From an uncultured Acidobacteriota bacterium (GTDB taxonomy: Bacteria > Acidobacteriota > UBA6911): 64,000 bases of DNA. The notes beneath the pieces are model-generated. The model was not told the origin of the DNA. It did no database searches and worked only from the letters and a program-made list of their open reading frames with translations. The stretch is from assembly GCA_963809485.1 (NCBI GenBank), contig CAWEJX010000017.1, positions 106,395 to 170,394 of the forward strand, in the 5' to 3' direction. Positions 29,787 to 60,631 of this stretch are shown piece by piece (within the stretch, counting starts at the first letter, position 1; every line of letters begins with the position of its first letter). The position numbers were made by a program, and so were the translations under genes.

Positions 29787-30455
29787 TCAGACCCGATGCT
29801 CCTTGCGCACCACTTTGCGCGCTCCGGAATACCAGGCCGTACTCCAATCCTTGGGTGGGATGATATCTTCGAGACGGTCAAGCTGGCCGATATTCTTCAG
29901 CCTGATATAAATGAGCTGCCAGGCGCATGGCCGTTCGGGATCCACTTCACACTGGCTCTCCAGCGAACCGCCGCAGGGCCCGTTCAGCAGTCGCTTGGCG
30001 CAGCGCGTCACCGGGCAAATCCCGCCGAATTGCGCCAGCATGCATTCACCGCAACCCAGGCACTTCTCCGTCCAGACCGCCTGCTCTTCCAGCACCCCCA
30101 GGAATTGAGTATTGAGGCCGGCATAAACCGGCTTATTCGGAAACCTCTCGGCAATCGCCTGCACTCCCGCACCACAGCCAAAAGAGACAATCGCTTCAAC
30201 CCCGGACGCCGGTTCCGCCAGATCCTTGAGAAATTCATTGTCGCACTGGCGCTCTATGGTGACCTGGGTGATTTCGAGCGTGTTACGTTCCAGCTTGCGA
30301 GCCATGCGAATGGCGTAAGAGGCAATGCCGACTTCCCGTTCGCCGCCCGCAAGGCAGACCGTCACACAGGTCCCGCAGCCTGCAAACAGGACTTTTTTAT
30401 GTCCGGATATAAGGTTCTTTACTTCGGTAATCGACTTGGGTGAAGCGACAATCAT
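29787..30455 (-). CDS. metV: MetV (MTHFR-associated Zn/Fe-S subunit)
   Basis: GCGTCVTVC, RQC, GCGAG, CLGCGEC, CPVTRCAK.LLNGPCGG, CEV, CAW. ATGA overlap with the upstream mvhD. Confidence 0.9.
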   Translation of the reverse strand: MIVASPKSITEVKNLISGHKKVLFAGCGTCVTVCLAGGEREVGIASYAIRMARKLERNTLEITQVTIERQCDNEFLKDLAEPASGVEAIVSFGCGAGVQAIAERFPNKPVYAGLNTQFLGVLEEQAVWTEKCLGCGECMLAQFGGICPVTRCAKRLLNGPCGGSLESQCEVDPERPCAWQLIYIRLKNIGQLDRLEDIIPPKDWSTAWYSGARKVVRKEHRV

Positions 30456-30952
30456 ACCTTCCCTGCACTTTCCGTCTGTTCCAGCGCCCGGATGGGGCTG
30501 GGACCCAGAGCCTTAACGGTTTCCACTATTCCCCTCACATGCTGCACAAATGCCGGCGCCATGGCGTCGGAGAGATTCACCATCTGAAGCCGGCTGCCCC
30601 CAATGCCGATCTCATCAAGAATGGACCGGATCCGGTCGATACGCTTGCGGGCCCGAAGATTTCCTTCCACATAATGGCAGCCTCCCTCCAGGCACCCGAC
30701 CACGAGTACTCCGTCCACACCCTTTTCAAATGCATCCAGGATATGCTCCATCTCGAGTTTCCCCGTGCATGGCGTGTGGATGATACGGACTCCGGCAGGA
30801 TATTGCATGCGCCGGGATCCCGCCAGATCCGCCGCAGCGAAGGCACAATAATTGCAGCAGAATGCGATGATTCGCGGAGCGCCGCAACGCCAGGCAGACG
30901 GGGCTGCCCGATCCTGCATTTTCGCCGACTGTCCAGTGTTCGCTGCAATCAT
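30452..30952 (-). CDS. mvhD: MvhD/FlpD [2Fe-2S] protein
   Basis: FCCNYCAFAAADLAG, PCTGK, GVDGV, GC..GGCHY..GN, GPSP. Confidence 0.9.
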   Translation of the reverse strand: MIAANTGQSAKMQDRAAPSAWRCGAPRIIAFCCNYCAFAAADLAGSRRMQYPAGVRIIHTPCTGKLEMEHILDAFEKGVDGVLVVGCLEGGCHYVEGNLRARKRIDRIRSILDEIGIGGSRLQMVNLSDAMAPAFVQHVRGIVETVKALGPSPIRALEQTESAGKV

Positions 30953-30954
30953 GC

Positions 30955-33900
30955 CTACCCTCCGCCAACCAGCATTTCTTCAAGCATCGCGATCATAGCG
31001 CCGGCCTCCTGGTGCCTCAGGGTAATGGATTTGGCCGGACAGGAAGCGGCGCAACTCCCGCATCCCATGCACTTGCCGCCCTGAATCTCCGATTTCCCAA
31101 GCCTGTTTATCATTGGAGCGCCGTAAGGGCACACCTTTAGGCAGGTGGTGCAGGCGACGCATTGAGCCGGATTCACAAAGGCGACCTGGCCGGCAATTTC
31201 GAGCTGAGCTTTTGAAAGAATCCTGGCCGCGCGTCCTGCGGCTGCCAGAGCCTGCGCGATTGTCTCATCGATGAACTGCGGCGAGTGAGCCATGCCGCAC
31301 AGGAATTCCCCCTCGTTGACAAGATCGACGGGGCGAAGCCTGGAATGAGCTTCCATGAAAAAGCCGTCAGCCGTTAACCCGCTGCGCAGCAGGCCCGCAA
31401 TCGCCGCGTTATCCAAAGCCGGAGAGATTCCGGTCGAAAGCAAAAGGAGGTCAGGATGAAAAACCTCGTCATCGAGGCCGTCGGCGTCCCGGACACTCAC
31501 GACAAGACGGCCGTCCTCTTCCTCTATCTTCGGATCCTTGCCGTCCATGGAACGAACGAAGCGAATTCCCTCTTCCAGCGCCTGCCGGAAATACGCTTCG
31601 CGGAATCCCTGGGTGCGCATATCCCGGCCGAGGATATGGATCCTGGCTTGCGGCAAACGGCGCCTGATTGCGAGGGCATTCTTAATCGCTTCCGCGCAAC
31701 AGACACGGCTGCAATACGGATTTTCTTCATTACGGCTTTCCACGCACTGGATCATGACGACCGTCGGATCCGGTTTGCCGATCAGCTCAGCAGGCAGGTT
31801 TCCCTCCGCCAGAGAGGCCTCAAACTCGGTCTGCGTGCGCACACGGGGGTTTCGGCCGTTCAAATATCGCTGGGTGGGTCGTTCCATCGCCCCGGTCGCA
31901 ACCAGGACCGCTCCGTGGCTCACGGGCTGCTCCCGGCCGGCCATATTCAGAACGCTTTTGAAATTTCCCACCTGCCCCGAGATTCCGGTCAGAGTCGTGT
32001 TCAGATAAACAGTGATCTCCGGATGGGATAGGACTTTTGATATCAGCCGATGCAGGTGCCCCTGGACGTCATCGCCTTCCAGCGTAGAGCACCTGTTGCG
32101 CAATTGCCCGCCCAGAGCCGCCGTTTTTTCCGCCAGGTGTACTTTATATCCCTGACCGGCAATGTTCAGCGCAGCGGTCATTCCCGCAAGGCCTCCTCCC
32201 AGAATCAGTGCCGAGGCGGTTACGGGGATTTCGCCATTTCTCAGCGCCTTCAAATGCCTCGCCCGAGCGACAGCCATCGACACCAGATCCACCGCTTTGG
32301 CGGTCGCCGCGGCGGGGTCGTCCTGGTGGACCCAGGAGCATTGGTCGCGGATGTTCGTCATGGCAAGGAGATAGGGATTGAGGCCGTTTTCAAGCAGCGT
32401 TTCCTGGAAGAGGATCTCATGCGTGCGCGACCAGCACGAAGCCACAACCAGGCGGTTCAGCCCGTGTTGTTTGATCACTTCCCTTATGTGCCGCTGACTG
32501 TCGTCCGAGCATGCATAGAGGCCGGCCTCGGCGTGCTTCACACCCGGCAGGGCAGCGGCCCTGGCCGCCACGCGATCCACATCGACAATGGAATCGATGT
32601 TGTGCCCGCAGCGGCAGACGAAAACGCCTATGCGGGGCGGCTCGTCCGTGACATCCCGCTCCCAGGGATACTCATGGCGCCGAGTCATGGTTCCGCGGAC
32701 GGTTGTGAGCAGGTCCATGGCGCAAGCGGCCGCCGCAGACGCCTGGGTCACGGATCCGGAAATTTCCTTGGGTTCCTGAAACGCGCCGGCCGTGTAAACT
32801 CCGGGTTGATTGGTTGTGACCGGCGACAGCCTCTCCGTCCGTGCAAAGCCGGACTCGTTGAGATCGATCCCCAGCCGGCGAGCCATTTCTTTCACTTTGG
32901 CCGGGACCTGCAGCCCTGAGCTGAGCACTACCAGATCGAATTCCTGCCGTTGCTCGGCGCCATCCGGGTCCTGGAAAACGACCTGCAGACCTTTGCCGTC
33001 GGGCGATTCCTCAACCCGGGAAGGGACGGCATGGATATAGCGAATGCCGCACTCGACGCGAGCCCGGTGGAGATAGCTGTCGAACTCTTTGCCGGAGACC
33101 CGCGTGTCCATGCAAAAGATCGCCGCCTCTATCCCCTGGTTTTGCTCCAGTGCGCCCATGGCTTCTTTGGATGCGCTCATGCAGCAGATCGATGAACAAT
33201 AGGATTTGCCGCGCCTCGGATTCCGGCTTCCTACGCACTGTATGAAGGCGATGGATTTCACCACTCTGCCGTCCGACGGACGTTTGATTTGCCCGCCGGT
33301 CGGCCCGCCGGCCGAAAGCAGGCGCTCGAACTGCAGATTGGTCACCACGTCCGGATAGCGGCCGTGACCGAACTCCGCCCAGAGAGAGGCCGGAAACTCC
33401 TCGATGCCCGGAGCGGCGATAATGCTGCCGACCTCGATGTCGATTTCCGTCTGCTGTTGATCGTGGCACACCGCTTGGGCTGAGCATGCCTGGACGCACT
33501 GCATGCATTCGCTGCAGCGGGCGCACGAAAGGCACCGTTTGGCTTCAGAGACTGCTTCGTCCGGGCTGTACCCCAGGTTGATTTCATCCCAATCCTCCAG
33601 CCTGGCGTCCGCACTTCGTTGCGGCATCCTGACGCGCTCTCTCCTGGGACCATCGGGTCCGGGATCGGGGACAGGCTTTGCCTTGGGAGCATTCACCGCG
33701 GCAGCTGAGCTCTGAAGTTTCAAAGTGCGGGGGACATGAGCAGTCTTTAGAATATACGATTCGATCGATGCGGCGGCTTTGTGGCCTTGAGCAATCGCTT
33801 CCGCAACAGACGCGGAACCCAGCACAACGCCGCCTCCGGCAAAAATGCCTTCGATGTTTGTGGCAAGAGTGTCCTCATCCGCGCGGATTCGCCCCCCGGG

Positions 33901-35464
33901 ACGCAGTTCAAATCCGAACCGGGCGGCATCGACTCCCAGGCCCGCGGCCACAATCACCGTATCCGCAGGTAGAGAAGTGATTTTGGCATCATCGAATATG
34001 GGGTCGAAGCGCCTGTACTCCTTGTCGAAAACGCTGGTGCAGGCACGAAAAATCACGCCCGTAACCTTGCCTTCGGAGTGCTCGAACCTGGTAGGGCCAA
34101 GGCCGTTATGGAAGACTACGCCTTCATCCAGAGCATCGGATACTTCCCGGGAATGGGCCTGCATTTCGGCGCGGCTTTCGAGACAGGCCAGGTGCACCGA
34201 GCGGACGCCGGGTAGCCGAAGGGCGCAACGCGCCGCGTCGATCGCCATCTCCGAACTGCCGATCACCAGCACCCGGGCGCCAAGGACCGGCTTTTTCCCG
34301 TCGTTGACATCGCTAAGGAAGCTCAGTCCTTCCCGGACCCCCAAAGCATCCTCTCCCGGAACGCCGAGCTTCCGGTTCAACCAGGCTCCGGTGGCAACAA
34401 ACACAGCATCGAATGCTTCAGCCGCACCGGATTCATGCCCCGATTGCAGTTCGGGTTTAAGCAGATCCTTCGGCCTGGCGATATGGGTACCGGCGCGGAC
34501 TTCCACTCCCAAATCGAGTATTTGTTTGATTTCGAAATCCAGAACAGGCCTGGGCAGCCTGTAGGCCGGGATGCCGTAACGGAGCATCCCGCCGAGCTGC
34601 AGTCTGAGCATCGAATAAAGTCACTCCGAAGCCTTTCATGGCAAGATCGGCGGCGGCCGTCAGGCCGGCCGCGCCGCTCCCCATCACGGCAATCCGGGCG
34701 TGATGCCGGAGAGGCGGTGCCGTCCATGCAGCATAATCCGCAGGATTCGAATAAACATGGTCGGCGACAAACCTTTCGAGATCACGGATCGAAAGAGCCT
34801 CGTCGATTCCATTCCGGTTGCACCCATCCTGACAGGGATGCGGACACAGCCGTCCGCACACAGCCGGAAGGGGGCAGCGCTGGCGAATAAGCTCATAGGA
34901 ATCCCCGAACCGGCCCGCAGCAGCGAGAGCCAGGGCGCCCGGGACATTCACGCCCGCAGGGCAGGAACTCCTGCAGGGCGCAGGCAGGGCGGACTTCGTT
35001 ATACTGAAGGCACTGGGGATAGACTGCGGGTAAGGACGGCAAACCGCCTTGCGCGTGCTCAGTCCGCAATCATGTTCATTGGGAAGATGGACCGGGCAGA
35101 CCTTCTCGCAGTCGCCGCAGGCGTCGCATTTCTTAATATCGATATAGCGCGGATTCTGACGGATCTTGACCCGGAAATTTCCAGGCCCGCCGGAGACGCT
35201 TTGTACGTCGCCAAGCGTGATGATTTCGATGTTTTTATTCCGGGCGCATTCCACCAGCTTGGGGGAAAGAATGCACATGGCGCAATCGCCGGCCGGGAAA
35301 ATCCTGTCAAGCTGGGCCATTTTCCCGCCGATGGCAGGGGAGGAATCCAGCAGATAGACTTTGAAACCTCCGTCCGCCAGGTCCAGCGATGCCTGAATGC
35401 CGCTGATTCCCGCACCGCAAACCAGCACCGCTCCGGTTTTTTCAATTTCCTGATTCCATGCCAT
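30955..35464 (-). CDS. hdrA: HdrA/HdrL-like large flavo-Fe-S protein, split by an apparent frameshift near 34610
   Basis: N-part GAGISGIQASLDLA, AQLDRIFP..DCAMCILSPKL, ferredoxin, GltD-like CxxxCP/CGRLC. C-part GGMLRYGIP, FIQCVGSR, YCSSICC, GVFVCRCG, NIRDQCSWVH, C-terminal 2x[4Fe-4S]. Confidence 0.85.
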
Positions 35465-35513
35465 GAAGCCGCCTGATGATTCAAAATAAGAAATTGCTTA
35501 TAACGCGCACCGG

Positions 35514-38117
35514 TCAGTTCCTGGATCCGGCCAGCACCGAAAGCTTGACCGCGCCGACCTTGCGGTAGACTTCGTGCGGAGCCCGAACCTGTCCATCCAC
35601 CATCAATAAATCTTCCAGCCGGATGCCGAAAAGGCGTTCGTTTTCCACCAGGTAAGGACGGATCAGCTGCCAATCCTTGTCGGAAAGCCCGGAAAGGACG
35701 CCGCCGTTCAGCTGTCGTTCGACCACCTGTTGATGAGGATCGCGGATGTAGATGGCTCCGCCGCTGGCAAGAGAAAATAGATTGCTGCCCGGATAGGGCA
35801 CCGCGAGAGGAATGACCCTGCCGTTTCTGTCGAACCCGATGCCGTTTAGGATGATGAATCCGCCGCCGTTCAGAGGATCTCCGGCCATGAAGGATTCCGC
35901 CAGAAAATCCAGACAGGTGCCGTTAATGACAACCCGCGGGCGGCCGACGGCATTGATCAACGGACGGCCCGCCGCGTTGCCGAGGACAAAAACGTCGCCG
36001 CCCTTGGCGCCGTACATGAACGTCTGGCCGACATCGCCATACACGACCAGCTTGCCGCTGCGGGCGATCTGGGCGACCTGGTCCTGCGCGTTGCCATGGA
36101 TGTGGATATGCAAGCCGTCCATGCCGCTTGCCGCATAATCGCCAACAGAGCCATAAAGGTCGATGCGCACGCCGTTTGTGTCCGGGCCCAGGCCTGCGCC
36201 GTGAAAGCGCTGCCCGCGCAGGCGGTAAACAACAAAGCGTGTCCAGCCCGCCTGGTAGGCAGTGCGAAGCAGAACGGCATCGCAATTGTCTCCCTCGGGG
36301 GGGAAATCCTCCGCATCAATGATCAGAAGCTCTTCGCCTGCACGAGGCGACGACAGTTGGTTCCGGGTACCCCAGTTCACACGGCGCCAGAAGCGGCTGG
36401 CCGGTTCGCCGAACAGCGGCGCCCGGTCCAGAAGATCTTCGATCCTGTCATCGACAACGCGTATCACCGTCGCCCGGCGCTTGTCGCCGGTGTCGAAATG
36501 CCGGTCGCGAAGCATCGTCAGCAACTCAAGGGCGGTAGCGCGGGATTGGGCATTGTCGGCGCCCTCGACCACCAGGCGGCAGAACTGCTCGAGGTCGCCG
36601 GCGGACCAGGAAGGCAGGCTGAGCGCAAAGCGGAAAAGGTTCTCCCTATCCCCTTTCTGCAGCCATTGGTTCACCAGCTCTCTCAATGCATCCGGCGCTT
36701 TGCCCGGATGGGCGGCCGGTGTCATGTCACACCGGATCGTTCCTGCATCCAGGATGACAGGGCGGCCGAACTTGTCGGCGCAGGAAAGCTTCTTGCGGCC
36801 ATTTTGTTCTGTATCCACGGAAAAGATGAAGGCGCCGCCATCCGTGCTCGATCCTCCGCGGGCATTCCAGTATTTATCTGCGATGGGGCAGAAGCGCGGG
36901 TCTTCACGGGCCAGGCTTCGCAGCGTGGCGTCGATGGCCTGTTTTTCGGAACAGATTAAACCGATCTGCACGTCCCCGCTTTCGGAAAGCGCAAATACCT
37001 GGGGACGGAGCATGGCCGTATCTGTGATGCCCATCAATTGAACTCTCTTCAGATCCGGCTGGCTGCGGGCGATGATGAAAAACCAGGGCCCGTCCGGAGA
37101 TGCGTGCATATGAGTCGCCTGGATTTGCCGGTAGACCGACTGCTTCTCCGGCGGCAACTGGTCGAAGTCCAGTTCGGTCGTCGGAGCCAGCGCTTCGATG
37201 ATGTACTCCAGGGGATACTTGTAGACCCTGTCCCACAGGTCGAACAGCTGAACCGATACTTCGGTATCGGTGAGGAACTGCTGGCGGATGTTGCGCTGGC
37301 GCAGATATTCGCAAACCGAATGATAATTGGCGAAATCGCCATTGTGCACCAGGGCTTCGTTCAATCCCGCGAAAGGGTGCGCACCGCCCGGATGCCATAC
37401 GCGTCCCTTGGTGGGATAGCGCTGATGAGCAATCCAGGCATGGGCTTTGAAATCCTGAAGCTGGTAATACTCGACGTTTTGTTCGGCATAGCCGACCATT
37501 TTGTAAATCAACAAATCCCTGCCGTGAGAAAGCACAAAAGCCCGCTTTTCCCCCAGGGACGCATAATACCGGTCATTCAGCCGGTAGGAATTCCGCCAGA
37601 CAAACTCGTCCTCCAGGTCCCGGGGCGATAAGAGTTCGAGGCCCGTCTCGGCGGCAAAGGCATTCAATACACCGGGCTTGACTCGGACGACATAGCGGTG
37701 GACGTCCGGCGGGCGGACTTCCAGTCCTGGGATATCCCGATAATCGTCAATGTGGCTTTGCCTCTTGGATAGGGCCACCTCGAAGTGAGGGAGGACAAAC
37801 TCGCGTTCGAGTTCCGCGTGGCATTCAGGGTCCAGCAGAGCGATCTGAAGCAGGTAGTGATGATCCAGCACGTCGCGGGAGACGCCCATCTGCTCGGGGG
37901 TCAGGCCGACAGCGGCAATGCCGCCGCCCTTGCCATTGCCGCGGTTCTGCATTTGGATCGACGGTTCATAAATGAACCGTCCTGCCAGCGGCACGGTGCA
38001 GGCGAATCCCGTTACGCCGCAGCCTCCTTCTTCGGCAGTATCGGCGGAAAATGCAGATTCCTTGCCGGAGTATATCTGCGACCGGGTTGCCAGCAATTGT
38101 TCGATAATATCTTTCAC
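35514..38117 (-). CDS. Glutamate synthase-like subunit: class II glutamine amidotransferase fused to a GXGXG domain (GltB domains 1+3)
   Basis: EGGCGV Ntn Cys after a ~32-aa propeptide; RGNGKGGG, HQRYPT, HPF, HNG, TDTEV; C-terminal GQRF.G.G, GDY..SG, GDVGQTFMYGAKGG, AESFMAG, SGGAIY. Confidence 0.85.
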   Translation of the reverse strand: MKDIIEQLLATRSQIYSGKESAFSADTAEEGGCGVTGFACTVPLAGRFIYEPSIQMQNRGNGKGGGIAAVGLTPEQMGVSRDVLDHHYLLQIALLDPECHAELEREFVLPHFEVALSKRQSHIDDYRDIPGLEVRPPDVHRYVVRVKPGVLNAFAAETGLELLSPRDLEDEFVWRNSYRLNDRYYASLGEKRAFVLSHGRDLLIYKMVGYAEQNVEYYQLQDFKAHAWIAHQRYPTKGRVWHPGGAHPFAGLNEALVHNGDFANYHSVCEYLRQRNIRQQFLTDTEVSVQLFDLWDRVYKYPLEYIIEALAPTTELDFDQLPPEKQSVYRQIQATHMHASPDGPWFFIIARSQPDLKRVQLMGITDTAMLRPQVFALSESGDVQIGLICSEKQAIDATLRSLAREDPRFCPIADKYWNARGGSSTDGGAFIFSVDTEQNGRKKLSCADKFGRPVILDAGTIRCDMTPAAHPGKAPDALRELVNQWLQKGDRENLFRFALSLPSWSAGDLEQFCRLVVEGADNAQSRATALELLTMLRDRHFDTGDKRRATVIRVVDDRIEDLLDRAPLFGEPASRFWRRVNWGTRNQLSSPRAGEELLIIDAEDFPPEGDNCDAVLLRTAYQAGWTRFVVYRLRGQRFHGAGLGPDTNGVRIDLYGSVGDYAASGMDGLHIHIHGNAQDQVAQIARSGKLVVYGDVGQTFMYGAKGGDVFVLGNAAGRPLINAVGRPRVVINGTCLDFLAESFMAGDPLNGGGFIILNGIGFDRNGRVIPLAVPYPGSNLFSLASGGAIYIRDPHQQVVERQLNGGVLSGLSDKDWQLIRPYLVENERLFGIRLEDLLMVDGQVRAPHEVYRKVGAVKLSVLAGSRN

Positions 38118-38123
38118 TCGTAT

Positions 38124-39740
38124 TTATCCTTCTTTGGCTTCCGGCCCGTCCTCGAGGTAGCAGAGTACATCGCTGCGGCCGCGAAGACTGCGAATCGACG
38201 GCATGCCCAGTTTCCTCAAAACAGCAACCATTTGCTCATGCCAGGCATTCTGGAGGTTGATAAGTCTCTGCGCGGCCCACTCCGGGCTCATCAATGTCAC
38301 AAGTTCGGGATCCGTGGAGGCAATTCCGCGCGGGCAACCCCGGCCGCTTTCACAGGAGGCGCATCGCACACAGCCCAGTGCCACCATTTCAGCCGTGCCT
38401 ATGACCACGCCGTCCGCCCCCAGGGCGATGGCTTTGAGCGCGTCATAGGCTGTCCGGATGCCGCCGGATGCAATCAGCGTAATCTTCTCCCGGATGCCTT
38501 CGGCGGAGAGGAATTTGTGCACTTTGGGAATGGCATATTCGATCGGCATCGCGATATTTTTTTTGGCGATGTCGGGCGCCGCGCCCGTGCCGCCGTAGCT
38601 TCCATCCAGGTGAATAATGTGCGCCCCCGCGTAATAGCTGCCCACGGCCACCATATCCACATCCACAGGAGTGGAAACCTTGACGCTTACGAGGCATCGG
38701 GGATTGACTTCTTTGATCCAGTCGAGATGCTTTTTGTGGTCCTCCACGCTGTAAACGCTGTGGAAGGGGAAGGGGCTGAAAAGCGCATTTCCGGGGACCG
38801 CGCCCCGCATGCGGGCGACAGCAGGGGTGTTCTTGTCGCCCAGCAGATGACCTCCGAGGCCGGGTTTGGCGCCCTGCGCATATTTGAACTCCACGATTCT
38901 CACGCGCTGGATGGTATCCTCGCGCACGCCGAAAAGGCCTGTGGCGACCTGCGTGATCACGTGGTTGTCATAGGGCTTGAGACGGTCCGGATACCCTCCC
39001 TCGCCCGTGCAGGTAAAGCTGTTCCAGGCAGCGGCAGCGCGAGCTTTGGCCAGAATAGTATGGATGCTCACGGACCCGAAACTCATCCCTCCGCCGTATA
39101 CCGGGATGTCGATATGTACCTGCGGCCGACCATCCTCCCGACGGTTCAGATCGAGGCCGGTGTCTATCTCAACAGAAGCCGCCTCCTTCAAGCCCTTTCT
39201 TCTTTCCGCAGTTTCGGAAACGACCGGACCGCCGAATCCCGCGATCTCAAATTTAAAGCGGAGCCTGTCAAAGCCGCCCCCTGATTCGCCGCAGCGATAT
39301 TTCAGGTGAGGCAGCGGGGTATGGCCGGTTTCTGCCTCATACCATGTCGATAAAATCAGGTCGCTCGGCCATCGGTAATCGCCGAGACAACGGGTATTGG
39401 GATTGAGCCCGAGGGTCAGGGCTTTTTGCGGGCACCGGGCGACGCAATAATTTTCCGTTTCCGCACACGCCGGACCGATGCACCGATTGTCCCTGGGGCG
39501 CAGCATGAGAGCATATCCTTCCGGCTTTGTGTGCACACCATACCGGCAGACCTCGGCGCACAGGCCGCAGTCAATGCAATCGGCCGAACGGCTTATTTTG
39601 TATTTGCCCAAAGGATTGCGATAACGGTCGGGCGCCGGACATATTTCGCGCCGGACCGTCTCCTGGGACCAATCCTCGGAGCCATCGGTCTCCTGCCGGA
39701 TTTCGTCCTGAATGTTGAGATCGGCGATTGTTGTCTTCAT
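38124..39740 (-). CDS. Glutamate synthase FMN-binding subunit (GltB domain 2/GlxD-like) with N-terminal ferredoxin; catalytic motifs intact
   Basis: CIDCGLCAEVC; GGMSFGS, TGEGG, QVATGLFGV, K.AQGAKPGLGGHL, DG..GGTGAAP, ASGGIR, CVRCASC....CPRGIAS. Confidence 0.88.
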   Translation of the reverse strand: MKTTIADLNIQDEIRQETDGSEDWSQETVRREICPAPDRYRNPLGKYKISRSADCIDCGLCAEVCRYGVHTKPEGYALMLRPRDNRCIGPACAETENYCVARCPQKALTLGLNPNTRCLGDYRWPSDLILSTWYEAETGHTPLPHLKYRCGESGGGFDRLRFKFEIAGFGGPVVSETAERRKGLKEAASVEIDTGLDLNRREDGRPQVHIDIPVYGGGMSFGSVSIHTILAKARAAAAWNSFTCTGEGGYPDRLKPYDNHVITQVATGLFGVREDTIQRVRIVEFKYAQGAKPGLGGHLLGDKNTPAVARMRGAVPGNALFSPFPFHSVYSVEDHKKHLDWIKEVNPRCLVSVKVSTPVDVDMVAVGSYYAGAHIIHLDGSYGGTGAAPDIAKKNIAMPIEYAIPKVHKFLSAEGIREKITLIASGGIRTAYDALKAIALGADGVVIGTAEMVALGCVRCASCESGRGCPRGIASTDPELVTLMSPEWAAQRLINLQNAWHEQMVAVLRKLGMPSIRSLRGRSDVLCYLEDGPEAKEG

Positions 39741-39883
39741 GCAAGGACCTTGGTCGTATCAGAAAAAAGCCGGTCTGAAATATCCGAAGTGCCCGCCGGC
39801 GGTTCCGGGCAAGACGTAGCGGCAAAAACGGCTCCCTCAAAACATGCTGTGTTTCCCATGGTCGTTCCCGACGGACTATTCAT
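39737..39883 (-). CDS. Putative 48-aa small protein between the two FMN subunits
   Basis: ATG 1 nt after the upstream stop; its TGA overlaps the next ATG (ATGA). MNSPSGTTMGNTACFEGAVFAATSCPEPPAG... Confidence 0.4.
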   Translation of the reverse strand: MNSPSGTTMGNTACFEGAVFAATSCPEPPAGTSDISDRLFSDTTKVLA

Positions 39884-39884
39884 G

Positions 39885-41321
39885 TCACTGCTCCATGGCC
39901 ACGCGGGCCAAATCCCCGAAAGCTTCTTTCTCCATGTCTTCCCGGAAAATGGCGCGTCCCACTTCGCCGCGCAGGCGCCGGACTTCACGGATGCCCATGG
40001 CGCCCAGCACCTCAATCAGCTGGCTGTTCCAGGCGCCCATAAGGTTGCTCATGCGCCGGGCTGCATATTCGACATCACAGGAAGCGCTTTGCACCGGGCA
40101 GAGGCCGTGCATCCGGGTTTCAGGAGGCGTCTCTTCCGTGCTCATGCCATGGGTGTCGCGGCAGACACGGCAGCCGAGGGCGACCAGCAGAGCCGTATCC
40201 ACAGCCACAAGGTCGGCGCCGCAGATGATGGCTTTGGCCATATGCTCGGCCAGATCGATTCCTCCGGAAACGATCAATGTAATTTCGTCGCGGATTCCCG
40301 CATCTACCAGGCGGCCGTGAATCTCGCGCATGGCATCTTTGATATGCCGGCCATTGACCGATTGCTCACACCCGTGCCGGCTCGCGCAGAGATGAAAAAC
40401 CTTGAATCCCTGTTGTGACAATTCGAGGATGCGGCCGGCGGTTGAGGACCGAAGCACCGTGCGGACCGAAAGAATGGCTTCCGGCGCCCCGGGCCGAATC
40501 AGGTCTGCCATTTTCGGCAAATCCGGGCAGTCCTGCAGTTGGACCATTTTGCCGATCCGGCCGCAAAGCGCCGGCAAACTCCACAGGTTGTTTTGGTCAA
40601 AAATGGGCACTACCGCCGGCATCAGATCCGGCGGCAGGCTGACGGCTTCCTGGGCGAGCACTGTCGCTACGGTGCCCAAATTTGCCGCTGCCCGCGACCG
40701 GGCATGCGCCAGCGTGACCGGGGGCACGGGCCAGGCGGGGATATCCAGAATGGCCGGGAGCGGAAGCTCGATCAGGCGCGCCGGCTGCGTGAGCATCCTG
40801 CCTTCCGGAGTGAAACTCAGACGCATTGGCTTGGATCCGACATCCACCGAGGTTGAGATGTATTCGCGCCCATGGATGCCGTCGCGTGTGGGGCGCACGA
40901 TTTCGGACATATCCGTCCATATGGAATCGAAACCGGGTCCATGGAACCTGCCCCGGTACCCTGCGCCCGAAACCGGTATCTTGCCGGACTCTGCCTGATC
41001 CCAGGTGCTGAGGATCATTTCCGGCCTGTAGTAATCGTCGCCCAATTCCAGGAATTCGGGATTGAGAGAAAGGTTCAGCAGCCCCTTGGTACAGCTTTGA
41101 ACGCAGGAAAGACAGGCTTTGCATTCATACAAGGGCTGCAAAACCGCAAACGGGTCGCGGTTGTGGGCGGATTCATGCCCGTAAACGTCGTAACAGCAGC
41201 GGGGCTTGACGCAATTGGTGCAGTGCGAGCAATCCTCACGCCAGTCTACGCTGCCGAATTTGCCAATCCTGTGGAAACGTCCCGGTGTCAAAACCGTGTG
41301 TATGTGATAGCGATCAGGCAC
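39885..41321 (-). CDS. Second, degenerate glutamate synthase FMN-domain paralog with N-terminal ferredoxin
   Basis: CSHCTNC...CKACLSCVQSC, GFDSIW, IVSGGI, AKAIICGAD, ALGCRVC, GEVGR. Lacks MSFGS, TGEGG and QGAKPG. Confidence 0.8.
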   Translation of the reverse strand: MPDRYHIHTVLTPGRFHRIGKFGSVDWREDCSHCTNCVKPRCCYDVYGHESAHNRDPFAVLQPLYECKACLSCVQSCTKGLLNLSLNPEFLELGDDYYRPEMILSTWDQAESGKIPVSGAGYRGRFHGPGFDSIWTDMSEIVRPTRDGIHGREYISTSVDVGSKPMRLSFTPEGRMLTQPARLIELPLPAILDIPAWPVPPVTLAHARSRAAANLGTVATVLAQEAVSLPPDLMPAVVPIFDQNNLWSLPALCGRIGKMVQLQDCPDLPKMADLIRPGAPEAILSVRTVLRSSTAGRILELSQQGFKVFHLCASRHGCEQSVNGRHIKDAMREIHGRLVDAGIRDEITLIVSGGIDLAEHMAKAIICGADLVAVDTALLVALGCRVCRDTHGMSTEETPPETRMHGLCPVQSASCDVEYAARRMSNLMGAWNSQLIEVLGAMGIREVRRLRGEVGRAIFREDMEKEAFGDLARVAMEQ

Positions 41322-41372
41322 CTCGATCTCCTCTTTGGGGCGGCCGCCCGCCCCCAGCTGCGGTTCAGAATT

Positions 41373-42281
41373 TCAATCCCGTAAGCCCGCCTGCTCGATG
41401 ACAGCGCCAGCCAAATGCTCACAACCGTTACTGAGAACGTGAATGCCACGGATGCCGGGCATACCTTTAAGCCTTGCCGCGATTTCGGCGGCCACGGTCA
41501 CCCCTTCCTTTTCTGGGTCTGCAGCTTTTTGGATTCGCTCGACAACCTCGTCTCCAATAGGCCCATAGGTCCGGCGCTTCTGAAGCACCTTTGCCTTCTC
41601 CGGGCTGGTAAGAGGCAATACGCTCGCAATAATGGCCGTACGCTTGTCAAAACCCGCAGACCTCACCACGTCCATCCATTGAGTGAATGCCTCAAAATCG
41701 AAGACCGCCTGGGTCAGCAGAAAATCCGCTCCCACTGAAATTTTTTTGGTCAGGCGCAGCACGTTCAGTTCCATCGGCCTCAAATAGGGATGGGCGATTG
41801 CTCCTATTTGAAGGTCCAGGCCGGGTTCAGACGGGTTCCGATAGTATCCCGCCTCCTGGAGTGCCATTCTTTTCAGCGCCTTCGTGAACTGGATCGAGTC
41901 AAAATCGTTGGCAGCGGCGGCTTGAGGGCAAATGCCGAGAGACTGATGATTCCCGCTCATGCAGAGGATGCCGGATATGCCCAGGGCCGACGCGCCCATT
42001 GCGTCGCTCAATAGGGCAATACGGTTGCGGTCGCGGGTAGCCATCGACAGGATGACACCGGAATGGCCTGCCCTGCCCAGCGCGACGGCAGCAGAAAAAG
42101 CCGAGCCGCGAATCCCATCGGGGTTATCCGCAACCACGACCGCATCCAGATTGCGCGGCAACGAATCTGAAATGCCTTGGACCGCATCGGCATCGGCGCC
42201 CGCTGGGGGCAGGTATCCCGCGGTCACAAGAAAACGCGTGGAGGAAAGAGCCTGGGAAAATCCATTACAATTGCCGGTCAT
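41373..42281 (-). CDS. metF: MetF-like flavoprotein (methylenetetrahydrofolate reductase paralog)
   Basis: PP, DNP, RDRNRIAL, KKISVGADFLLTQ.VFD, GIH motifs. Canonical E(x)xPP and GD appear as VTAGYLPP and SGNH. Confidence 0.8.
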   Translation of the reverse strand: MTGNCNGFSQALSSTRFLVTAGYLPPAGADADAVQGISDSLPRNLDAVVVADNPDGIRGSAFSAAVALGRAGHSGVILSMATRDRNRIALLSDAMGASALGISGILCMSGNHQSLGICPQAAAANDFDSIQFTKALKRMALQEAGYYRNPSEPGLDLQIGAIAHPYLRPMELNVLRLTKKISVGADFLLTQAVFDFEAFTQWMDVVRSAGFDKRTAIIASVLPLTSPEKAKVLQKRRTYGPIGDEVVERIQKAADPEKEGVTVAAEIAARLKGMPGIRGIHVLSNGCEHLAGAVIEQAGLRD

Positions 42282-42284
42282 CGG

Positions 42285-42839
42285 TTAACTCGCACCTTTC
42301 CCGGGAGAGCTTCCGGCCGGATTTTCAGAGGGCGACAACCGCAGCGGGCTCGAGCGGCTGCAATGAAACGTCTTCATGACCTGGTCGCGGATTTCGGTCA
42401 GTTGGGCATCCAATCTTTCCGCCGATGATTCGGCCGAATCGGCTTTCGCATCGCCGGCCGGAAAGGCTACGGTTGCCCCGGCGCGGCCCGGAAGATGAAA
42501 AAGCATCAGACGTTCAGCCCCAAGACCGATCTCCATGAGGATCGACCGGATAAAATCGACGCGGCGGTCGCAGCGTTTGCTGCCCTCGAGAAATGTGCAA
42601 TGCTCTTCCCGGCAGCCGACAACAGACACAATGCTAGTGCCGGATTCAAAGGCCTTCAGAACATGCTCGGGCTGCAACCGCCCGGAGCATGGAACAAGTA
42701 TCTGCTGAACCTCGACGGGCCAATGGAAATCCAGGGCCGCGGACCGGGTCGCAATACCCGAGGCCGGTTGCCGGCCTGGCTGTGCGCAGTTAGCGCACAG
42801 AAACAGTGTAATTTCAGGAGAGTTCGGGGAATGTTCCAC
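42285..42839 (-). CDS. Divergent MvhD/FlpD-like [2Fe-2S] protein
   Basis: LCANC, VPCSGR, LKAFESG, GC...C...EGS, EIGLGAERL. Confidence 0.8.
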   Translation of the reverse strand: MEHSPNSPEITLFLCANCAQPGRQPASGIATRSAALDFHWPVEVQQILVPCSGRLQPEHVLKAFESGTSIVSVVGCREEHCTFLEGSKRCDRRVDFIRSILMEIGLGAERLMLFHLPGRAGATVAFPAGDAKADSAESSAERLDAQLTEIRDQVMKTFHCSRSSPLRLSPSENPAGSSPGKGAS

Positions 42840-43026
42840 CAGTCCTCCTTGCTTTCTTGCTCAAAAAGCCGGGATCGGGGTTGCCGCCAGACTCATCGCG
42901 GGCAGCCCGATGATCCTTGAAATCTTCGCACCGGATAATCCTCAACTGGGCGCTTCGCCTCAAAGTGCACGTTGAATCGTGCATGCAGGTTTCACACAGG
43001 CCATGATATTTTGTCGTTTCGGCCAT
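42814..43026 (-). CDS. Small Cys-rich protein (GLCETC...C...C), first gene of the operon
   Basis: GAAAGGA RBS, ATG 43026, four Cys in CxxC-x5-C-x12-C. Confidence 0.6.
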   Translation of the reverse strand: MAETTKYHGLCETCMHDSTCTLRRSAQLRIIRCEDFKDHRAARDESGGNPDPGFLSKKARRTGGTFPELS

Positions 43027-43054
43027 AAAGAATCCTTTCGGAAGCGATAACTCT

Positions 43055-43070
43055 AGCAAGCGCCATGCCA
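43055..43070 (-). promoter_or_regulatory. sigma54 (-24/-12) promoter
   Basis: Minus strand TGGCATGGCGCTTGCT = GG-N10-GC, about 30 nt upstream of the operon's first ATG and directly downstream of a sigma54 activator gene. Confidence 0.85.
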
Positions 43071-43172
43071 ATTCAGGCATTCTATTGGCAATTATTTTCT
43101 CCAATATTTAAGCAAATTTATAATTATTATGAAATTAAATACCATTTTAAACTAAACCTGGCAAACTATTTC

Positions 43173-43210
43173 TGGTATTAATTATTTACCATGGAACGCT
43201 ATTTATACCA
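43173..43210. promoter_or_regulatory. Candidate upstream activator sites: tandem TGGWA-N9-TACCA palindromes
   Basis: TGGTA-ttaattatt-TACCA (43173-43191) and TGGAA-cgctattta-TACCA (43192-43210), 100-140 nt upstream of the -24 box across an AT-rich spacer. Confidence 0.55.
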
Positions 43211-43339
43211 GTCGGGATTAAAAGGCGTTTTGGGGAGATTCATTATAAAAGTAGGAACTTCGGCGTGGGTCAGCGCTTATGTCCGCGTTCGTCCGCGTTA
43301 AGAACTGAATGGATTTGCCTGAACCTGCTCGGGACAGTA

Positions 43340-45148
43340 TCAGGATAGCCCATATTTATCGAGTTTTTTACGCAGGGTAACGCGGCTTATGGAAAGCATT
43401 CTGGCCAGTTCGCGCTGACTGAATCGACCAGAATCAAGAAAGTGACGCAGGAGTGTTTCCTCCACAGTGTCCAGGAGCAAATCCCGCAGGCCAGAAGGAT
43501 TCCTTGAGGAAGCCAGAACGCGCAGAACAGCTTTGCGGAGGTCGGCCTGAGCATCGGTTTCCTGCATGGGGCTTGGATCCGCACCGGGATTCAAACGGCT
43601 GTCCAAAATCTCGTCGGGAAGCAGTTCGAGTGAGACGGTATTGTCCGGGCTCATGACCACGGCCCGCTCGATGCAGTTTTCCAGCTCGCGCACATTTCCG
43701 GGCCAGGAATAGGCCACCAGGGTGTCCAGCACATCCCGGGGGACGATCGTGACTTTGCGGTTCGCTTCGCGGTTGTATTTTTCCAGGAAATGGTCCACGA
43801 GGAGGGGAATATCCTCGCGCCGGTCTCTGAGGGGCGGCAGATGTATGGGGATGACGTTCAGCCTGTAGAGAAGGTCCTGGCGGAAACGGCCGGCGCGTAT
43901 TTCCGATCGCAGGTCCCGGCCGGTCGCAGCCACGATGCGGACGTCGACTGTCACCGTACGGCTTGATCCCACCGGCTCGAATTGTTTTTCCTGGAGCACG
44001 CGCAGAAGCTTGACCTGAAGGCGCGGGCTCATTTCACTGACTTCATCCAGGAAAAGCGTGCCCCCGTCGGCCGCCCGGAATCTTCCTTCGTAATCCCGTA
44101 CGGCTCCCGTAAATGCGCCTCTGACGTGGCCGAACAGTTCGGTTTCGAGCAAGGTTTCGGGGAGCGCCCCGCAATTCACTTTGACCAGCGGGCCGCCGGA
44201 GCGATCGCTGTTGTAATGGACAACATTTGCGATCAGCTCTTTTCCCGTGCCGGTTTCGCCCGTAATCAGCACGGATGAACGCGATTGGGCCGCGGTGGCG
44301 GCCAAACCCAACAGCCGCCGGATAGCGGCGCTGCCGCCGACGATGCTGTCGACCCTGTAGCTGCGCCTTAATTCCTCGCCGCGGCGCGTCAGGCGGTCGA
44401 CACCCCGGGCGCTGCCGGTATCCCCATCCTGCGCCGCCGATCCCTCGTCCAGGTCCAGGGGTTGCGCGACGCCGATGGCGGCGTTCCGGCCCGCGGATTT
44501 GTGCACCGTCAATGATCGTTGGCCGTTGGACAGAGAGACTTCCATTACGACCTGCGTTATGTGTCTCACTTTCGCCAGGAAAGCTTCGCTGTGAGCATCT
44601 GTCTCCACAAGCCAGTATGCCAGGGTCGAAAGATCGTACAGACGCGGGCAGAGGTGTCCAAAAAGCCTCACGACCCTGTTTTCATCGCCCCAGAGGTCCA
44701 GCATTCCGGTGAGCGAATCAAAGACGTAGTTGGCCGACTGGCCCCCGCGCGTGCCGACCTCGACAATGGCTTTTTCCAAACGGGATGGATCCGAGGGGTC
44801 GGCGATGTGAACGGGAGCATGCACACTATTGCGGGCGGGATCATCGAAAAATTTCAGAAAGACCTCATCGGAATTCCCTTTCCCCGATGAGAAACAGTCG
44901 ATCAAAAAAAAGCGTCCCGGGGTCATGAGTCCGGCATACTTCGCCGCGATCGTTTGGGGGGATCGATTGAAGCTGACGTATACAACCGGGATTTCGTCGT
45001 GTTCGCAGGCAAGTACAAAGCTGGAGATAAAATGGTCGCCGGCCACTCCCGAGTCGATTTCCCAGACAAGGTTATCACCGGCCATCACTCCGCCGATGGC
45101 CCGGTCCACTTCGGTAATGCCCGTGGTAGGCCCGTACTTGAATGCCAT
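43340..45148 (-). CDS. sigma54-dependent activator with N-terminal KaiC/RAD55-like domain
   Basis: TTGITEVDRAIGG..GDNLVW, VFDSLT (RecA/KaiC-like). GETGTGKE, GAFTGA, FLDEV, PGNVRELEN, C-terminal Fis-type HTH. Confidence 0.9.
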   Translation of the reverse strand: MAFKYGPTTGITEVDRAIGGVMAGDNLVWEIDSGVAGDHFISSFVLACEHDEIPVVYVSFNRSPQTIAAKYAGLMTPGRFFLIDCFSSGKGNSDEVFLKFFDDPARNSVHAPVHIADPSDPSRLEKAIVEVGTRGGQSANYVFDSLTGMLDLWGDENRVVRLFGHLCPRLYDLSTLAYWLVETDAHSEAFLAKVRHITQVVMEVSLSNGQRSLTVHKSAGRNAAIGVAQPLDLDEGSAAQDGDTGSARGVDRLTRRGEELRRSYRVDSIVGGSAAIRRLLGLAATAAQSRSSVLITGETGTGKELIANVVHYNSDRSGGPLVKVNCGALPETLLETELFGHVRGAFTGAVRDYEGRFRAADGGTLFLDEVSEMSPRLQVKLLRVLQEKQFEPVGSSRTVTVDVRIVAATGRDLRSEIRAGRFRQDLLYRLNVIPIHLPPLRDRREDIPLLVDHFLEKYNREANRKVTIVPRDVLDTLVAYSWPGNVRELENCIERAVVMSPDNTVSLELLPDEILDSRLNPGADPSPMQETDAQADLRKAVLRVLASSRNPSGLRDLLLDTVEETLLRHFLDSGRFSQRELARMLSISRVTLRKKLDKYGLS

Positions 45149-58715: not shown

Positions 58716-59131
58716 GGCAATTAATGCATTTTTGCCTGTTTGTGTCTTCGAGTCCTGGAGGTTTTGGTGTATACTGCAACGCCGCGTTTAGCGGCGAATC
58801 TGCGGGCGAAGTTTAGGTTTACGGATCGCCGGGCTCATTAAGGAAGGGATCGGCGGCAACGGGCGGCCGAAGTGGCGAAGAAGCCCGGCCGGGTAGTTAA
58901 ATAGGTATGGGATAAATAATGATATCGGGTTTGATTTCCAAGTTCCTTTTTCCTGCAATCTATCAGCATTATTAGTTTTATAAGTTTTATAGAGTTAACA
59001 GCCAGTTCTTCATATTCGTCATAAATATGGTATCATTTTAAGGGATTACGGTGCTGCCGGAAGAGGACGTTTTCAGTGTCTCGACCGGTTAAGGGATGGG
59101 CTAATTTGCCCTGCCGGGAAATGGAGTAGCG

Positions 59132-59690
59132 ATGGACCAAAGCGCGCAGGCAATCAAAACGAATCAATCTCTCCTGAATGAAATTTATAAGGTCAGCGGA
59201 GAAAAGATTCAAAACTGTTATCAGTGCCAGAAGTGTTCGGCAGGGTGTCCCGTTAATTTTGCCATGGACATCCTCCCCAACCAGATGTTCCGTCACATTC
59301 AATACAACAACCGGGACAAGGTGCTTTCATCGAAAACCATTTGGCTGTGCGCTTCCTGCCACACCTGCAGCGTCCGGTGCCCCAACAGCATCGACATCGC
59401 CAAAGTTATGGATACCTTGAGAGAGCATATCCGCCCGATCCGGCATGGCTCCAGGAGAAAAGAAGATCTCGCTGTTCCACAAGTTCTTTCTGGGGCTCAC
59501 GAAATACACGGGCCGCACCTGGGAACCCGGCATGGGGATTTACGTCATGCAGACCGGAGGTTTGGGCGGGATGATGGGATGGACGATGAAAATGTTTTTA
59601 AAGGGTAAAATCAGTCTTTTGCCGACATTCAAAGGCGGAAGGCAATTCAGAAAGCTGTTCAGCACTGTGGGAAAAGGAGGCGATCAATGA
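59132..59690 (+). CDS. hdrC: Heterodisulfide reductase subunit C-like, apparent frameshift near 59420
   Basis: CYQCQKCSAGCP and WLCASCHTCSVRCP. The C-terminus (FHKFFL...GR..E) continues in another frame and overlaps the hdrB ATG. Confidence 0.88.
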
Positions 59691-60538: not shown

Positions 60539-60540
60539 TC

Positions 60541-60620: not shown

Positions 60621-60631
60621 GGAGGGGTAGT

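Follow-up and report, generated by a model that had tools for sequence, protein, structure and literature searches.

Ammonia enters biomass mainly through glutamate synthase (GOGAT), and to our knowledge the described forms of the enzyme are only NAD(P)H-, ferredoxin- and, as a proposal, F420-dependent. In the archaeal-type split GOGAT and in the F420-dependent glutamate synthase (FGltS), the glutaminase, the ferredoxin-fused flavin mononucleotide (FMN) part and the GXGXG part are separate, and the electron input of FGltS is FrhB. The three-part GltB-like proteins MgsABC/GlxBCD, which are encoded alongside gmaS and mgd in aerobic methylotrophs, are redox-neutral and need no electron chain. Here we describe an operon in the metagenome-assembled genome of an uncultured soil Acidobacteriota bacterium, whose genus is Bryobacterales-like to judge by names, in a stretch of 64,000 nucleotides (nt) of contig CAWEJX010000017.1 (the window), in which genes for glutamate-synthase parts stand among genes for electron-transfer proteins of the Hdr, MvhD and Met types.

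In the methylene-tetrahydrofolate (methylene-THF) reductase of Moorella thermoacetica, MetFV-HdrABC-MvhD, the genes run hdrCBA-mvhD-metVF and the HdrA flavin is thought to bifurcate electrons (Mock et al. 2014, as quoted in the available portion of PMC7325909). HdrL of Desulfobacterium autotrophicum, a large HdrA into which a GltD/NAD(P)H module is inserted, is followed by mvhD (PMC2702500), and type III HdrA of methane-metabolising archaea has the GltD-insert architecture (PMC12054007); in their accessible sections both papers hold the insert to be the NAD(P)H entry, and GltD-like modules in general are described in this way in those of PMC8097209. FGltS is mentioned in the openly available passages of PMC9012536. 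An earlier note on this DNA, made from its letters, had stated that no described system combines a split glutamate synthase with an Hdr-MvhD-Met module, and indeed we found no description of the cluster in the main text of the open-access literature, as far as it is available (including PMC5736913, PMC6085437 and PMC6046458).

On our preferred reading, to which we assign a probability of about 0.6, the product of the operon is a single glutamine-dependent GOGAT, with its alpha subunit split over three proteins and its electrons fed in through an Hdr/MvhD/Met-type chain. The features are as follows, with coordinates counted from the first letter of the window.

43340-45148, minus strand: sigma54 enhancer-binding protein, 602 residues; AAA+ with GAFTGA, C-terminal HTH_8
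43056-43070, minus strand: sigma54-type -24/-12 element TGGCATGGCGCTTGC, 30 nt 5' of the ATG at 43026
42814-43026, minus strand: small 4-Cys open reading frame (ORF), 70 residues; CxxC-x5-C-x12-C
42285-42839, minus strand: MvhD', 184 residues, [2Fe-2S]-type MvhD/FlpD electron-transfer protein; FlpD 2.5e-23
41373-42281, minus strand: MetF', 302 residues, methylene-THF-reductase fold; weak match to MTHFR, 6e-17
39885-41321, minus strand: GltBdeg, 478 residues, degenerate paralogue of the FMN subunit; Glu_synthase C-terminal third, 1.2e-13
39737-39883, minus strand: '48-aa ORF', most likely non-coding spacer; conserved in one relative only
38124-39740, minus strand: GltB-FMN, 538 residues, synthase with N-terminal 2x[4Fe-4S] ferredoxin domain; Glu_synthase 3.8e-90, Fer4_9
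35514-38117, minus strand: GATGXG, 867 residues, Ntn (class II) amidotransferase plus GXGXG beta-helix; GATase_6, GXGXG 1.8e-12
30955-35464, minus strand: HdrL, in the order HdrA, GltD-like insert, HdrA, second HdrA (NCBIfam/Pfam); two frames here
30452-30952, minus strand: MvhD, 166 residues, the copy paired with HdrL; FlpD 5.7e-46, VhuD 5.6e-45
29787-30455, minus strand: MetV, 222 residues, 13 Cys, iron-sulfur partner of MetF; DUF5981 4.5e-37

In the enzyme that we propose, GATGXG would combine glutaminase and beta-helix and would hydrolyse glutamine at Cys33. The ammonia would be passed to 2-oxoglutarate at the FMN of GltB-FMN, which would reduce the resulting 2-iminoglutarate, while GltBdeg would be a catalytically dead, cluster-bearing twin of the synthase subunit. 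Electrons would arrive not from a free GltD but through a chain of the HdrABC-MvhD-MetFV type, formed by HdrL, MvhD, MetV, MetF' and MvhD', where HdrL would contribute two HdrA-type flavin modules and an inserted GltD-like NAD(P)H/FAD module. Their route would lead from NAD(P)H or ferredoxin to the flavins and clusters of HdrL, then to MvhD, to MetV/MetF'/MvhD', to the clusters of GltBdeg and finally to the clusters and FMN of GltB, with all proteins held in one complex. The donor would thus be NAD(P)H or ferredoxin, and the GOGAT is possibly bifurcating: the reaction is strongly exergonic and may be coupled, at the HdrA flavin, to the reduction of ferredoxin. Since the same genome carries canonical gltB (1513 residues) and gltD (476 residues) on contig C6, the operon would supply a second GOGAT, one under sigma54 control.

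The operon and its glutamate-synthase parts

All genes of the cluster lie on the minus strand (window ORF list), and the gene order and co-orientation that the earlier note had given agree with the ORF coordinates. The ATGA overlaps at 30452-30455 and 39737-39740, the 26-nt overlap after the first gene (42814 to 42839) and the intergenic gaps of 2, 6, 3 and 1 nt, and of 49 and 51 nt, are exactly as it described them, and its domain calls hold as well, with Pfam/NCBIfam backing each gene call. The range that it assigned to the operon, 29787-45148, contains the operon but also takes in the activator gene, the operon proper being 29787-43070. Relative to G006, the nearest relative within the window's genus and our reference for ratios of nonsynonymous to synonymous substitution (dN/dS), every gene is under purifying selection (0.05-0.29 for all 11 pieces). 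The ORF of 48 codons, which the note had counted among the genes, did not survive: an equivalent is present in one of eight genus loci (G006, 77% identity), 80 further loci gave no meaningful match, the spacer around it varies from 9 to 328 nt across the genus, and contigs of two DNA metagenome runs carry an indel at 39854, inside the ORF. It is probably not a gene, but rather non-coding spacer.

The residues expected of a glutamine amidotransferase are found in GATGXG. C33, R233-Y-P-T, H-N259-G260 and D284 (in D(T/S)E) align with PurF-type amidotransferases, with Cys33 placed on Cys1 of PurF and of ferredoxin-dependent glutamate synthase (Fd-GltS); the aligned Cys, Arg, Asn-Gly and Asp presumably have the same catalytic roles as in PurF. 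Cys33 is nearly invariant in 62 sequences. Residues 33-859 of the AlphaFold model of GATGXG (predicted local distance difference test, pLDDT, 88) superpose on residues 1-1501 of Synechocystis Fd-GltS (1ofd_A) over 579 residues, with Z 28.2 and a root-mean-square deviation (rmsd) of 3.0, so the model of this single chain covers the amidotransferase and beta-helix domains of GltS in one superposition. Because the match runs from model residue 33 to GltS residue 1, GATGXG corresponds to alpha-subunit domains 1 and 4 after a 32-residue leader, and we infer that this leader is removed before Cys33.

GltB-FMN aligns to residues 857-1176 of Azospirillum brasilense GltB (1ea0/2vdc) at 2e-50. It retains QGAKPG, ARxR, GGTGA and the cluster cysteines C457/C463/C469 (1102/1108/1113 in the reference), in which we take the Lys, Arg and Gln to bind 2-oxoglutarate and the Cys to hold the [3Fe-4S] cluster. 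Compared with A. brasilense GltB it has an extra cysteine near the cluster site, C460, and His in place of Gln in the GGQL motif. Judged by these residues, the glutamate-synthase parts look catalytically competent.

Could these proteins be a related amidotransferase or reductive aminase, with another amide donor or 2-oxo acid, as in MgsABC/GlxBCD, rather than a GOGAT? The division into GATase-like, FMN and GXGXG parts resembles that of MgsABC, GltB-FMN has the His in GGQL, and none of the Glt proteins reached an NCBIfam equivalog cut-off, the matches being to generic families only. However, the Ntn domain retains its glutamine-binding residues and the 2-oxoglutarate site its Lys/Arg/Gln, and the genes next to the cluster are amt, glnK-type P-II and type I glnA, not methylamine genes. 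For neighbour counts, as for the typing of loci below, we used the best 80 of the 587 loci that carry a relative of GATGXG; among these, the recurrent neighbours are Amt (9 loci), GlnA (8), P-II (7), CarA (6) and PurF (5), and the one neighbouring GlnA that was tested passed the type I equivalog cut-off of NCBIfam (503 vs 429 bits). We consider such a non-GOGAT activity highly unlikely.

The remaining synthase-like subunit, GltBdeg, resembles GltB-FMN only in its ferredoxin domain and in the final third of the barrel, and it lacks the FMN and 2-oxoglutarate/substrate motifs. Across 45 sequences it nevertheless has 12 invariant cysteines (two ferredoxin-type motifs and a third site) and an invariant block of 25 residues, W135-T157, that is disordered in the model (mean pLDDT 76.9). 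The model is best matched by the FMN domain of GltS (7mfm_G 799-1181; Z 23.2, rmsd 3.1, 305 residues). We also considered GltBdeg as a homologue of the GltS central domain, and rejected this, as the model matches the FMN domain (788-1184). Natural fusions of GltBdeg with GltB, about 960-1070 residues long, indicate that the two subunits work together: 645 proteins were found at E <= 0.001, and among the 120 that were listed the coverage of GltBdeg is 84-100%.

In three giant proteins of 2526-3152 residues (P0149, P0178 and P0198), a Glu_synthase FMN domain and a part resembling GATGXG are fused to an FAD-linked oxidase; the oxidase consists of FAD_binding_4 and FAD-oxidase_C, and in one of the three it also has Fe-S domains. 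This looks like a relative of the same core fed by a 2-hydroxyacid oxidase, and indicates that the core accepts different electron-input modules.

Cluster types and the electron-transfer proteins

Scanning species-representative genomes with a profile made from a five-sequence GATGXG alignment gave the 587 places mentioned above. The clusters, whose design is common among anaerobes, are spread over Acidobacteriota, Desulfobacterota, Chloroflexota, Planctomycetota, Actinomycetota, Verrucomicrobiota and other phyla, so that the wide synteny which the earlier note had proposed to look for, in the first three of these in particular, does exist. GATGXG proteins form 305 clusters at 50% identity (E <= 1e-30). 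Of the genomes sampled, 20 of 24 from the window's genus and 10 of 201 from Acidobacteriota have the gene, and the gene order of the window is kept in six of the eight genus loci of useful length.

The best 80 loci fall into two main types. Type A (32 loci) has the order MvhD'-MetF'-GltBdeg-GltB-GATGXG-HdrC-HdrB-HdrL-MvhD-MetV, whereas type B (28 loci; 23 of subtype B1 and 5 of B2) has MvhD-MetV-MetF with the glt genes and no Hdr; five loci are of other kinds and 15 are too short to tell. The association thus persists in at least three gene orders and across many phyla. HdrC and HdrB stand between GATGXG and HdrL in 29 of the 32 type A loci, and are missing only from the three that belong to the window's genus. 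Nine further genus loci likewise gave no HdrB or HdrC match, and the gap between GATGXG and hdrL in the window is 49 nt. Judging by gene content, the window's genus alone has lost hdrCB, and its system is a trimmed derivative.

MvhD', which starts with GTG behind AAGGAGGA, is the MvhD copy of the core cluster: it lies upstream of MetF in both cluster types, and its four cysteines are invariant in 20 sequences. The second copy, MvhD (30452-30952), is then found 3' of HdrL in type A loci.

The two cluster types differ in the active site of MetF. The columns of the catalytic triad were mapped by family profile to human MTHFR (6fcx; EFFPPR, LRGD, TQLFF) and to Escherichia coli MetF, where we take the triad to be Glu28, Asp120 and Gln183 (Q183 was checked by counting). 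In the window and in G006 the triad is eroded, with G-N-Q instead of E-D-Q. More generally, E-D-Q is present in 21 of 23 Hdr-less loci and in only 2 of 15 Hdr-type loci. MetF' of the window is, however, under purifying selection (dN/dS 0.16), which, with the catalytic residues gone, fits a structural role in a complex. MetF' probably lacks what methylene-THF reduction needs and, from its sequence, would serve as a scaffold or flavin relay only.

These observations bear on an alternative in which carbon and nitrogen metabolism are linked: MetF would be a working enzyme, and oxidation of methyl-THF or reduction of methylene-THF would be coupled through MetV/MvhD to glutamate synthesis. Methyl-THF may serve as the reductant of GOGAT, or two reductases may share one low-potential input. 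MetF and MetV do belong to the conserved core, in 28 Hdr-less and 32 Hdr-type loci. The triad is kept in 21 of the 23 Hdr-less loci although the genomes tested (five, all Hdr-less) hold 2-8 MTHFR genes each, as though the MetF of the cluster were a dedicated paralogue under selection for folate chemistry. The midpoint potential is about -200 mV for methylene-/methyl-THF and less negative for 2-oxoglutarate plus ammonium/glutamate, so that electron flow from methyl-THF to GOGAT would be downhill. Against this, catabolic one-carbon flux would be expected to exceed nitrogen-assimilation flux by far, MetF' of the window has Gly/Asn in the places of Glu/Asp, the triad is found in just 2 of 15 Hdr-type loci, and no MetF-Glt fusion was found apart from a probable read-through. 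The search for such fusions yielded five longer proteins; in only one of them, P0391, does MetF' run into the start of GltBdeg, and the scrambled tail of this protein points to a read-through artefact. In the absence of the Glu/Asp pair, the carbon-nitrogen link cannot hold for this operon, but it is possible for type B; over both types we regard it as unlikely. The second of the two readings offered by the earlier note, an amine/C1 enzyme working with a pterin carrier, shares this fate: it is unlikely for the window, where the catalytic Glu/Asp are Gly/Asn, and possible for the Hdr-less form.

MetV is the best conserved protein of the operon, with 84-86% identity in six of the seven other genus species compared, 81.5% in G016, and a dN/dS of 0.05. 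In a midpoint-rooted tree with long branches, all 16 of the 16 type A MetVs fall into a single clade (support 96/87), which is nested in type B and far from the other MetVs of the genome. This result suggests that the Hdr-type operon arose once from an Hdr-less one and spread across phyla. At one locus (L086, Deltaproteobacteria bacterium UBA7527) a complete hdrC-hdrB-hdrL-mvhD-metV-metF cluster lies 2.9 kb after a type B cluster, on the same strand. That the Hdr-type cluster came from a merger of an Hdr-less and a canonical hdr-metVF cluster, as this locus had suggested, is not supported by the MetV tree.

A further alternative is mere co-location, in which a split GOGAT that depends on ferredoxin would share its operon, but no complex, with an HdrL-MvhD-MetV(F) oxidoreductase. 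Three of the 80 loci (L051, L068 and L099) have GltBdeg-GltB-GATGXG with no MetFV/MvhD within 10 kb, the ferredoxin domains of GltB-FMN could take electrons from free ferredoxin, and no Rosetta-stone fusion joins the two modules. A complex prediction for MvhD', MetF' and GltBdeg scored 0.17, the mark being 0.32, and speaks neither for nor against a complex. On the other hand, the genes are interleaved, with MvhD'/MetF' before the glt genes and HdrL-MvhD-MetV after them, at gaps of 1-6 nt or overlaps; the association survives rearrangement into at least three gene orders in many phyla; and purifying selection on a MetF' without catalytic residues is what a structural partner would show. We therefore think mere sharing of an operon rather improbable, and return to the single electron-fed GOGAT as our reading.

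HdrL was taken by the earlier note as a single ORF, but here it occupies two frames, 34457-35464 and 30955-34611. The GltD motif LGGMLRYGIPAYRLP resumes in the +1 frame directly after FDAQTAA, and a comparison with two relatives shows one base too many in the gene around 34600-34610. Two DNA metagenome runs gave contigs of about 95% identity to the window that likewise have one base fewer, at 34607, and hdrL is a single frame in every relative with the full-length gene (six loci; 1499-1507 residues, 1505 in G006). The dN/dS relative to G006 is 0.16 and 0.18 on either side of the break. The assembly itself carries indel noise, since window positions 58730-64000 and contig C3:8-5287 are the same locus assembled twice and differ, at 98.7% identity, by 19 gaps in 5285 nt. 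Taken together, the relatives and metagenome contigs without the extra base, the selection on both sides and the noise in the assembly make an assembly error the most likely cause of the break. Two other genes are also split: an MFS (major facilitator superfamily) transporter gene at 28464-29704 (plus strand), whose overlapping ORFs of 214 and 223 residues each match MFS_1, probably through another one-base assembly indel, and a MetF on contig C21.

Along HdrL, HdrA2 model positions 134-301 are followed by GltD-type models (PRK12771, 4.4e-42 and 3.5e-97) and then by HdrA2 positions 283-562. Pfam analysis of the intact G006 protein agrees, placing a GltD-like module (Fer4_20 with FAD and NAD(P)H Rossmann folds) inside HdrA. 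The earlier note's 'no separate gltD' is thus true in that the operon has none as a gene of its own, but a GltD-like module is present in HdrL, and the genome has the canonical pair. Its first reading, an Hdr-linked glutamate synthase, is the better supported of its two, by residues and folds of GltS, by synteny and by the amt/P-II/glnA neighbours. HdrA is not a simple substitute for GltD, however, as the note had supposed with 'HdrA replaces GltD'; the GltD-like domain is built into HdrL itself.

Several observations count against an Hdr-fed GOGAT. In G016 (locus L019) the glt genes are present, GATGXG is directly followed by metV, and HdrL and MvhD are missing; with the 28 Hdr-less loci, this suggests that HdrL is dispensable for the core. 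In G017 (L018) HdrL is shorter by about 370 residues, and the assembly studied here has hdrL broken into two frames. As its NAD(P)H motif, HdrL carries GSSEMA in the window, and the two other sequences of the genus have GSSDLA and GSTDLA, whereas 23 other cluster HdrLs have GGG(D/N)xA; that is, the second Gly of GxGxxA is Ser/Thr in three of three genus HdrLs and in none of the 23 others. With such an eroded motif NAD(P)H may not be the donor here, and ferredoxin or another donor is possible. The intact MetF triad of the Hdr-less form (21 of 23) is left unexplained by a pure GOGAT. Finally, the distribution of canonical glutamate synthase is not discriminating: a canonical GltB central domain was found in 2 of 10 cluster-bearing Acidobacteriota and in 67 of 191 without the cluster, a tally that takes in one unpublished genome (G034), and a strong Glu_syn_central match was missing from eight of nine cluster-bearing Acidobacteriota outside the genus, and also from 124 of 191 genomes without the cluster.

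Some of these facts could alternatively mean that the Hdr half is decaying in this strain, the frameshift being real and the operon working, if at all, in the manner of G016, without HdrL. The frameshift is there in the assembly, hdrCB is gone from the genus (none in nine loci), the NAD(P)H motif there is eroded, and HdrL is missing (with MvhD) or shortened in G016 and G017, respectively. Such decay is hard to reconcile with dN/dS values of 0.16-0.18 on both sides of the break, with the two-run contigs of about 95% identity that lack the extra base, and with the indels seen elsewhere in the assembly (the 19 gaps in 5285 nt, the split MFS gene and the split MetF on C21). Decay of the Hdr half is accordingly, in our view, an improbable explanation.

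If the preferred reading of an Hdr/MvhD/Met-fed GOGAT is extended, the operon may encode a bifurcating, energy-conserving enzyme, in which glutamate synthesis would be the high-potential arm and the second electron of NAD(P)H would go to ferredoxin at the HdrA flavin, and the ancestral Hdr-less core would have been driven by methyl-THF through an intact MetF. We regard this extension as doubtful. If it were true, erosion of the MetF active site along with acquisition of Hdr (triad in 2 of 15 vs 21 of 23 loci) would record a change of electron donor, and the Hdr-less form would tie one-carbon oxidation directly to nitrogen assimilation.

Sigma54 control, the first ORF and a paralogous cluster

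The sigma54 promoter and the activator gene that the earlier note had placed upstream are both confirmed: the element TGGCATGGCGCTTGC, an activator with GAFTGA and, elsewhere in the genome, rpoN are all present. Matches to the sigma54 pattern are no rarer than chance in the window (5 vs 5.26 expected). The element is at the same place in six of six genus loci, and in 6 of 56 loci overall the first gene of the cluster has a sigma54 site directly 5' of it, where about 0.6 would be expected, which suggests that sigma54 control is local to some lineages. The activator matches Sigma54_activat (6.1e-68), AAA_lid_14 (6.2e-29) and HTH_8 (1.4e-06) in Pfam; its gene adjoins the operon in five of the six genus loci that reach that far, and has a dN/dS of 0.06 relative to G006. 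Predicted promoter, adjacent bacterial enhancer-binding protein and rpoN together define this as a putative sigma54-dependent operon. Searches for internal promoters and terminators in the operon were uninformative (6 and 13 matches vs 6.1 and 14.9 expected).

The N-terminal 268 residues of the activator (44345-45148) matched no Pfam family. This sensor part is something other than an NtrC-type receiver. Its language-model features place it closest to archaeal KaiC/RAD55-like ATPase domains (score 0.83, no more than a lead), and no P-loop is visible in it. A palindrome, TGGTAT-N26-ATACCA, lies at 43172-43211, about 100-140 nt 5' of the sigma54 element, and is common to the window and G006 only; it is a possible activator site. 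Reads from two runs that we guessed to be RNA gave only partial matches, at 90-95%, all within the conserved AAA+ region of the activator gene, and most likely come from other organisms.

The small 4-Cys ORF was found by tblastn in five of eight genus loci (dN/dS 0.16); it has no Pfam match, and the ORF did not turn up outside the genus. The 70-residue ORF of the window is a truncated form of a protein of about 110 residues with two Cys4 repeats in other genus members, the window and G006 having the first repeat only. In the longer form (L013:3095-3424, with equivalents in L014, L016, L017 and L018) the two repeats read GLCxxCxHDxxCxLRR...IIQCEEF, the end SESAA is conserved, and there is no Pfam match.

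A second, canonical cluster of related genes lies 14 kb from the operon, at 59132-64000 of the window (plus strand). It comprises hdrC (59132-59608), hdrB (59687-60538, with two CCG domains) and hdrL2 (from 60632), and runs on, on contig C3 (L023), to metV and then a MetF with intact E-D-Q. The hdrL2 product is paralogous to the operon HdrL (44-50% identity); the gene ends early in the window, at 63934, and the copy on C3 encodes 1499 residues. This hdr-metV-metF cluster is presumably the genuine methylene-THF reductase of the cell. Altogether the genome (contigs C3, C4, C7 and C21 and the window) has five MetV and five or six MetF paralogues, including a 657-residue MetF-MetV fusion on C4, a number that is unusual for an Acidobacteriota genome.

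Significance and comparison with known systems

If our reading is correct, hundreds of species-level genomes contain a form of GOGAT wired through MvhD/MetV/MetF, and in half of the cases through HdrABC-type proteins as well. This would change the costing of nitrogen assimilation in anoxic soils, peat and sediments, would change the annotation of genes now labelled as generic 'glutamate synthase domain' proteins, and would add a candidate to the reactions considered for flavin-based bifurcation. The copy in the window is reduced and slightly damaged, and is a poorer model than the full forms. New here are the contrast in the MetF triad between cluster types, the loss of hdrCB in the genus and the eroded NAD(P)H motif.

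In its core the system resembles GltBD and Fd-GltS (A. brasilense 1ea0/2vdc/6s6s; Synechocystis 1ofd/1llw; Bacillus subtilis 7mfm), with which it shares the Ntn glutaminase Cys1, the FMN site with a three-Cys motif and the beta-helix; a GltD-like FAD/[4Fe-4S] module is also encoded in the operon, as in GltBD. Unlike in GltS, the alpha subunit consists of three proteins (867, 538 and 478 residues) instead of one chain of about 1500 residues, the central domain is absent and an additional dead FMN-type subunit with 12 conserved cysteines stands in its place, and ferredoxin domains are part of the FMN subunits; the cluster site has a fourth Cys. In contrast to GltBD, the GltD-like module is contained in an HdrA fusion of about 1500 residues, and two MvhD copies, MetV and MetF' are extra.

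Split parts and an exchangeable electron-input module are also features of the archaeal split GOGAT and FGltS, to go by their description. In the present operon, however, glutaminase and GXGXG are fused, the dead FMN twin is obligatory, and the input is MvhD/MetV/MetF with or without Hdr, not FrhB. A difference from MgsABC/GlxBCD, likewise by description, lies in the company that the genes keep: amt, P-II, type I glnA, carA and purF are the neighbours of the cluster, and no mgd-like conserved neighbour emerged.

The electron-transfer half resembles the Moorella MetFV-HdrABC-MvhD complex, as far as the available portion of PMC7325909 describes it, in protein families and partly in gene order, with MetV, MvhD and HdrA encoded together; it departs from that complex in that the glt genes lie between metF' and hdr, MetF' lacks Glu/Asp, hdrCB is absent in the genus and HdrA is a GltD-bearing HdrL. 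HdrL and type III HdrA, in the accessible sections of PMC2702500 and PMC12054007, are tied to dsr, fdh or mvh genes and not to glutamate synthase parts, and the insert of the window differs from theirs in having GSSEMA for GxGxxA/G. The operon thus has a core like that of GltBD/Fd-GltS and an electron module like that of HdrABC-MvhD-MetFV, and is a member of neither family as defined.

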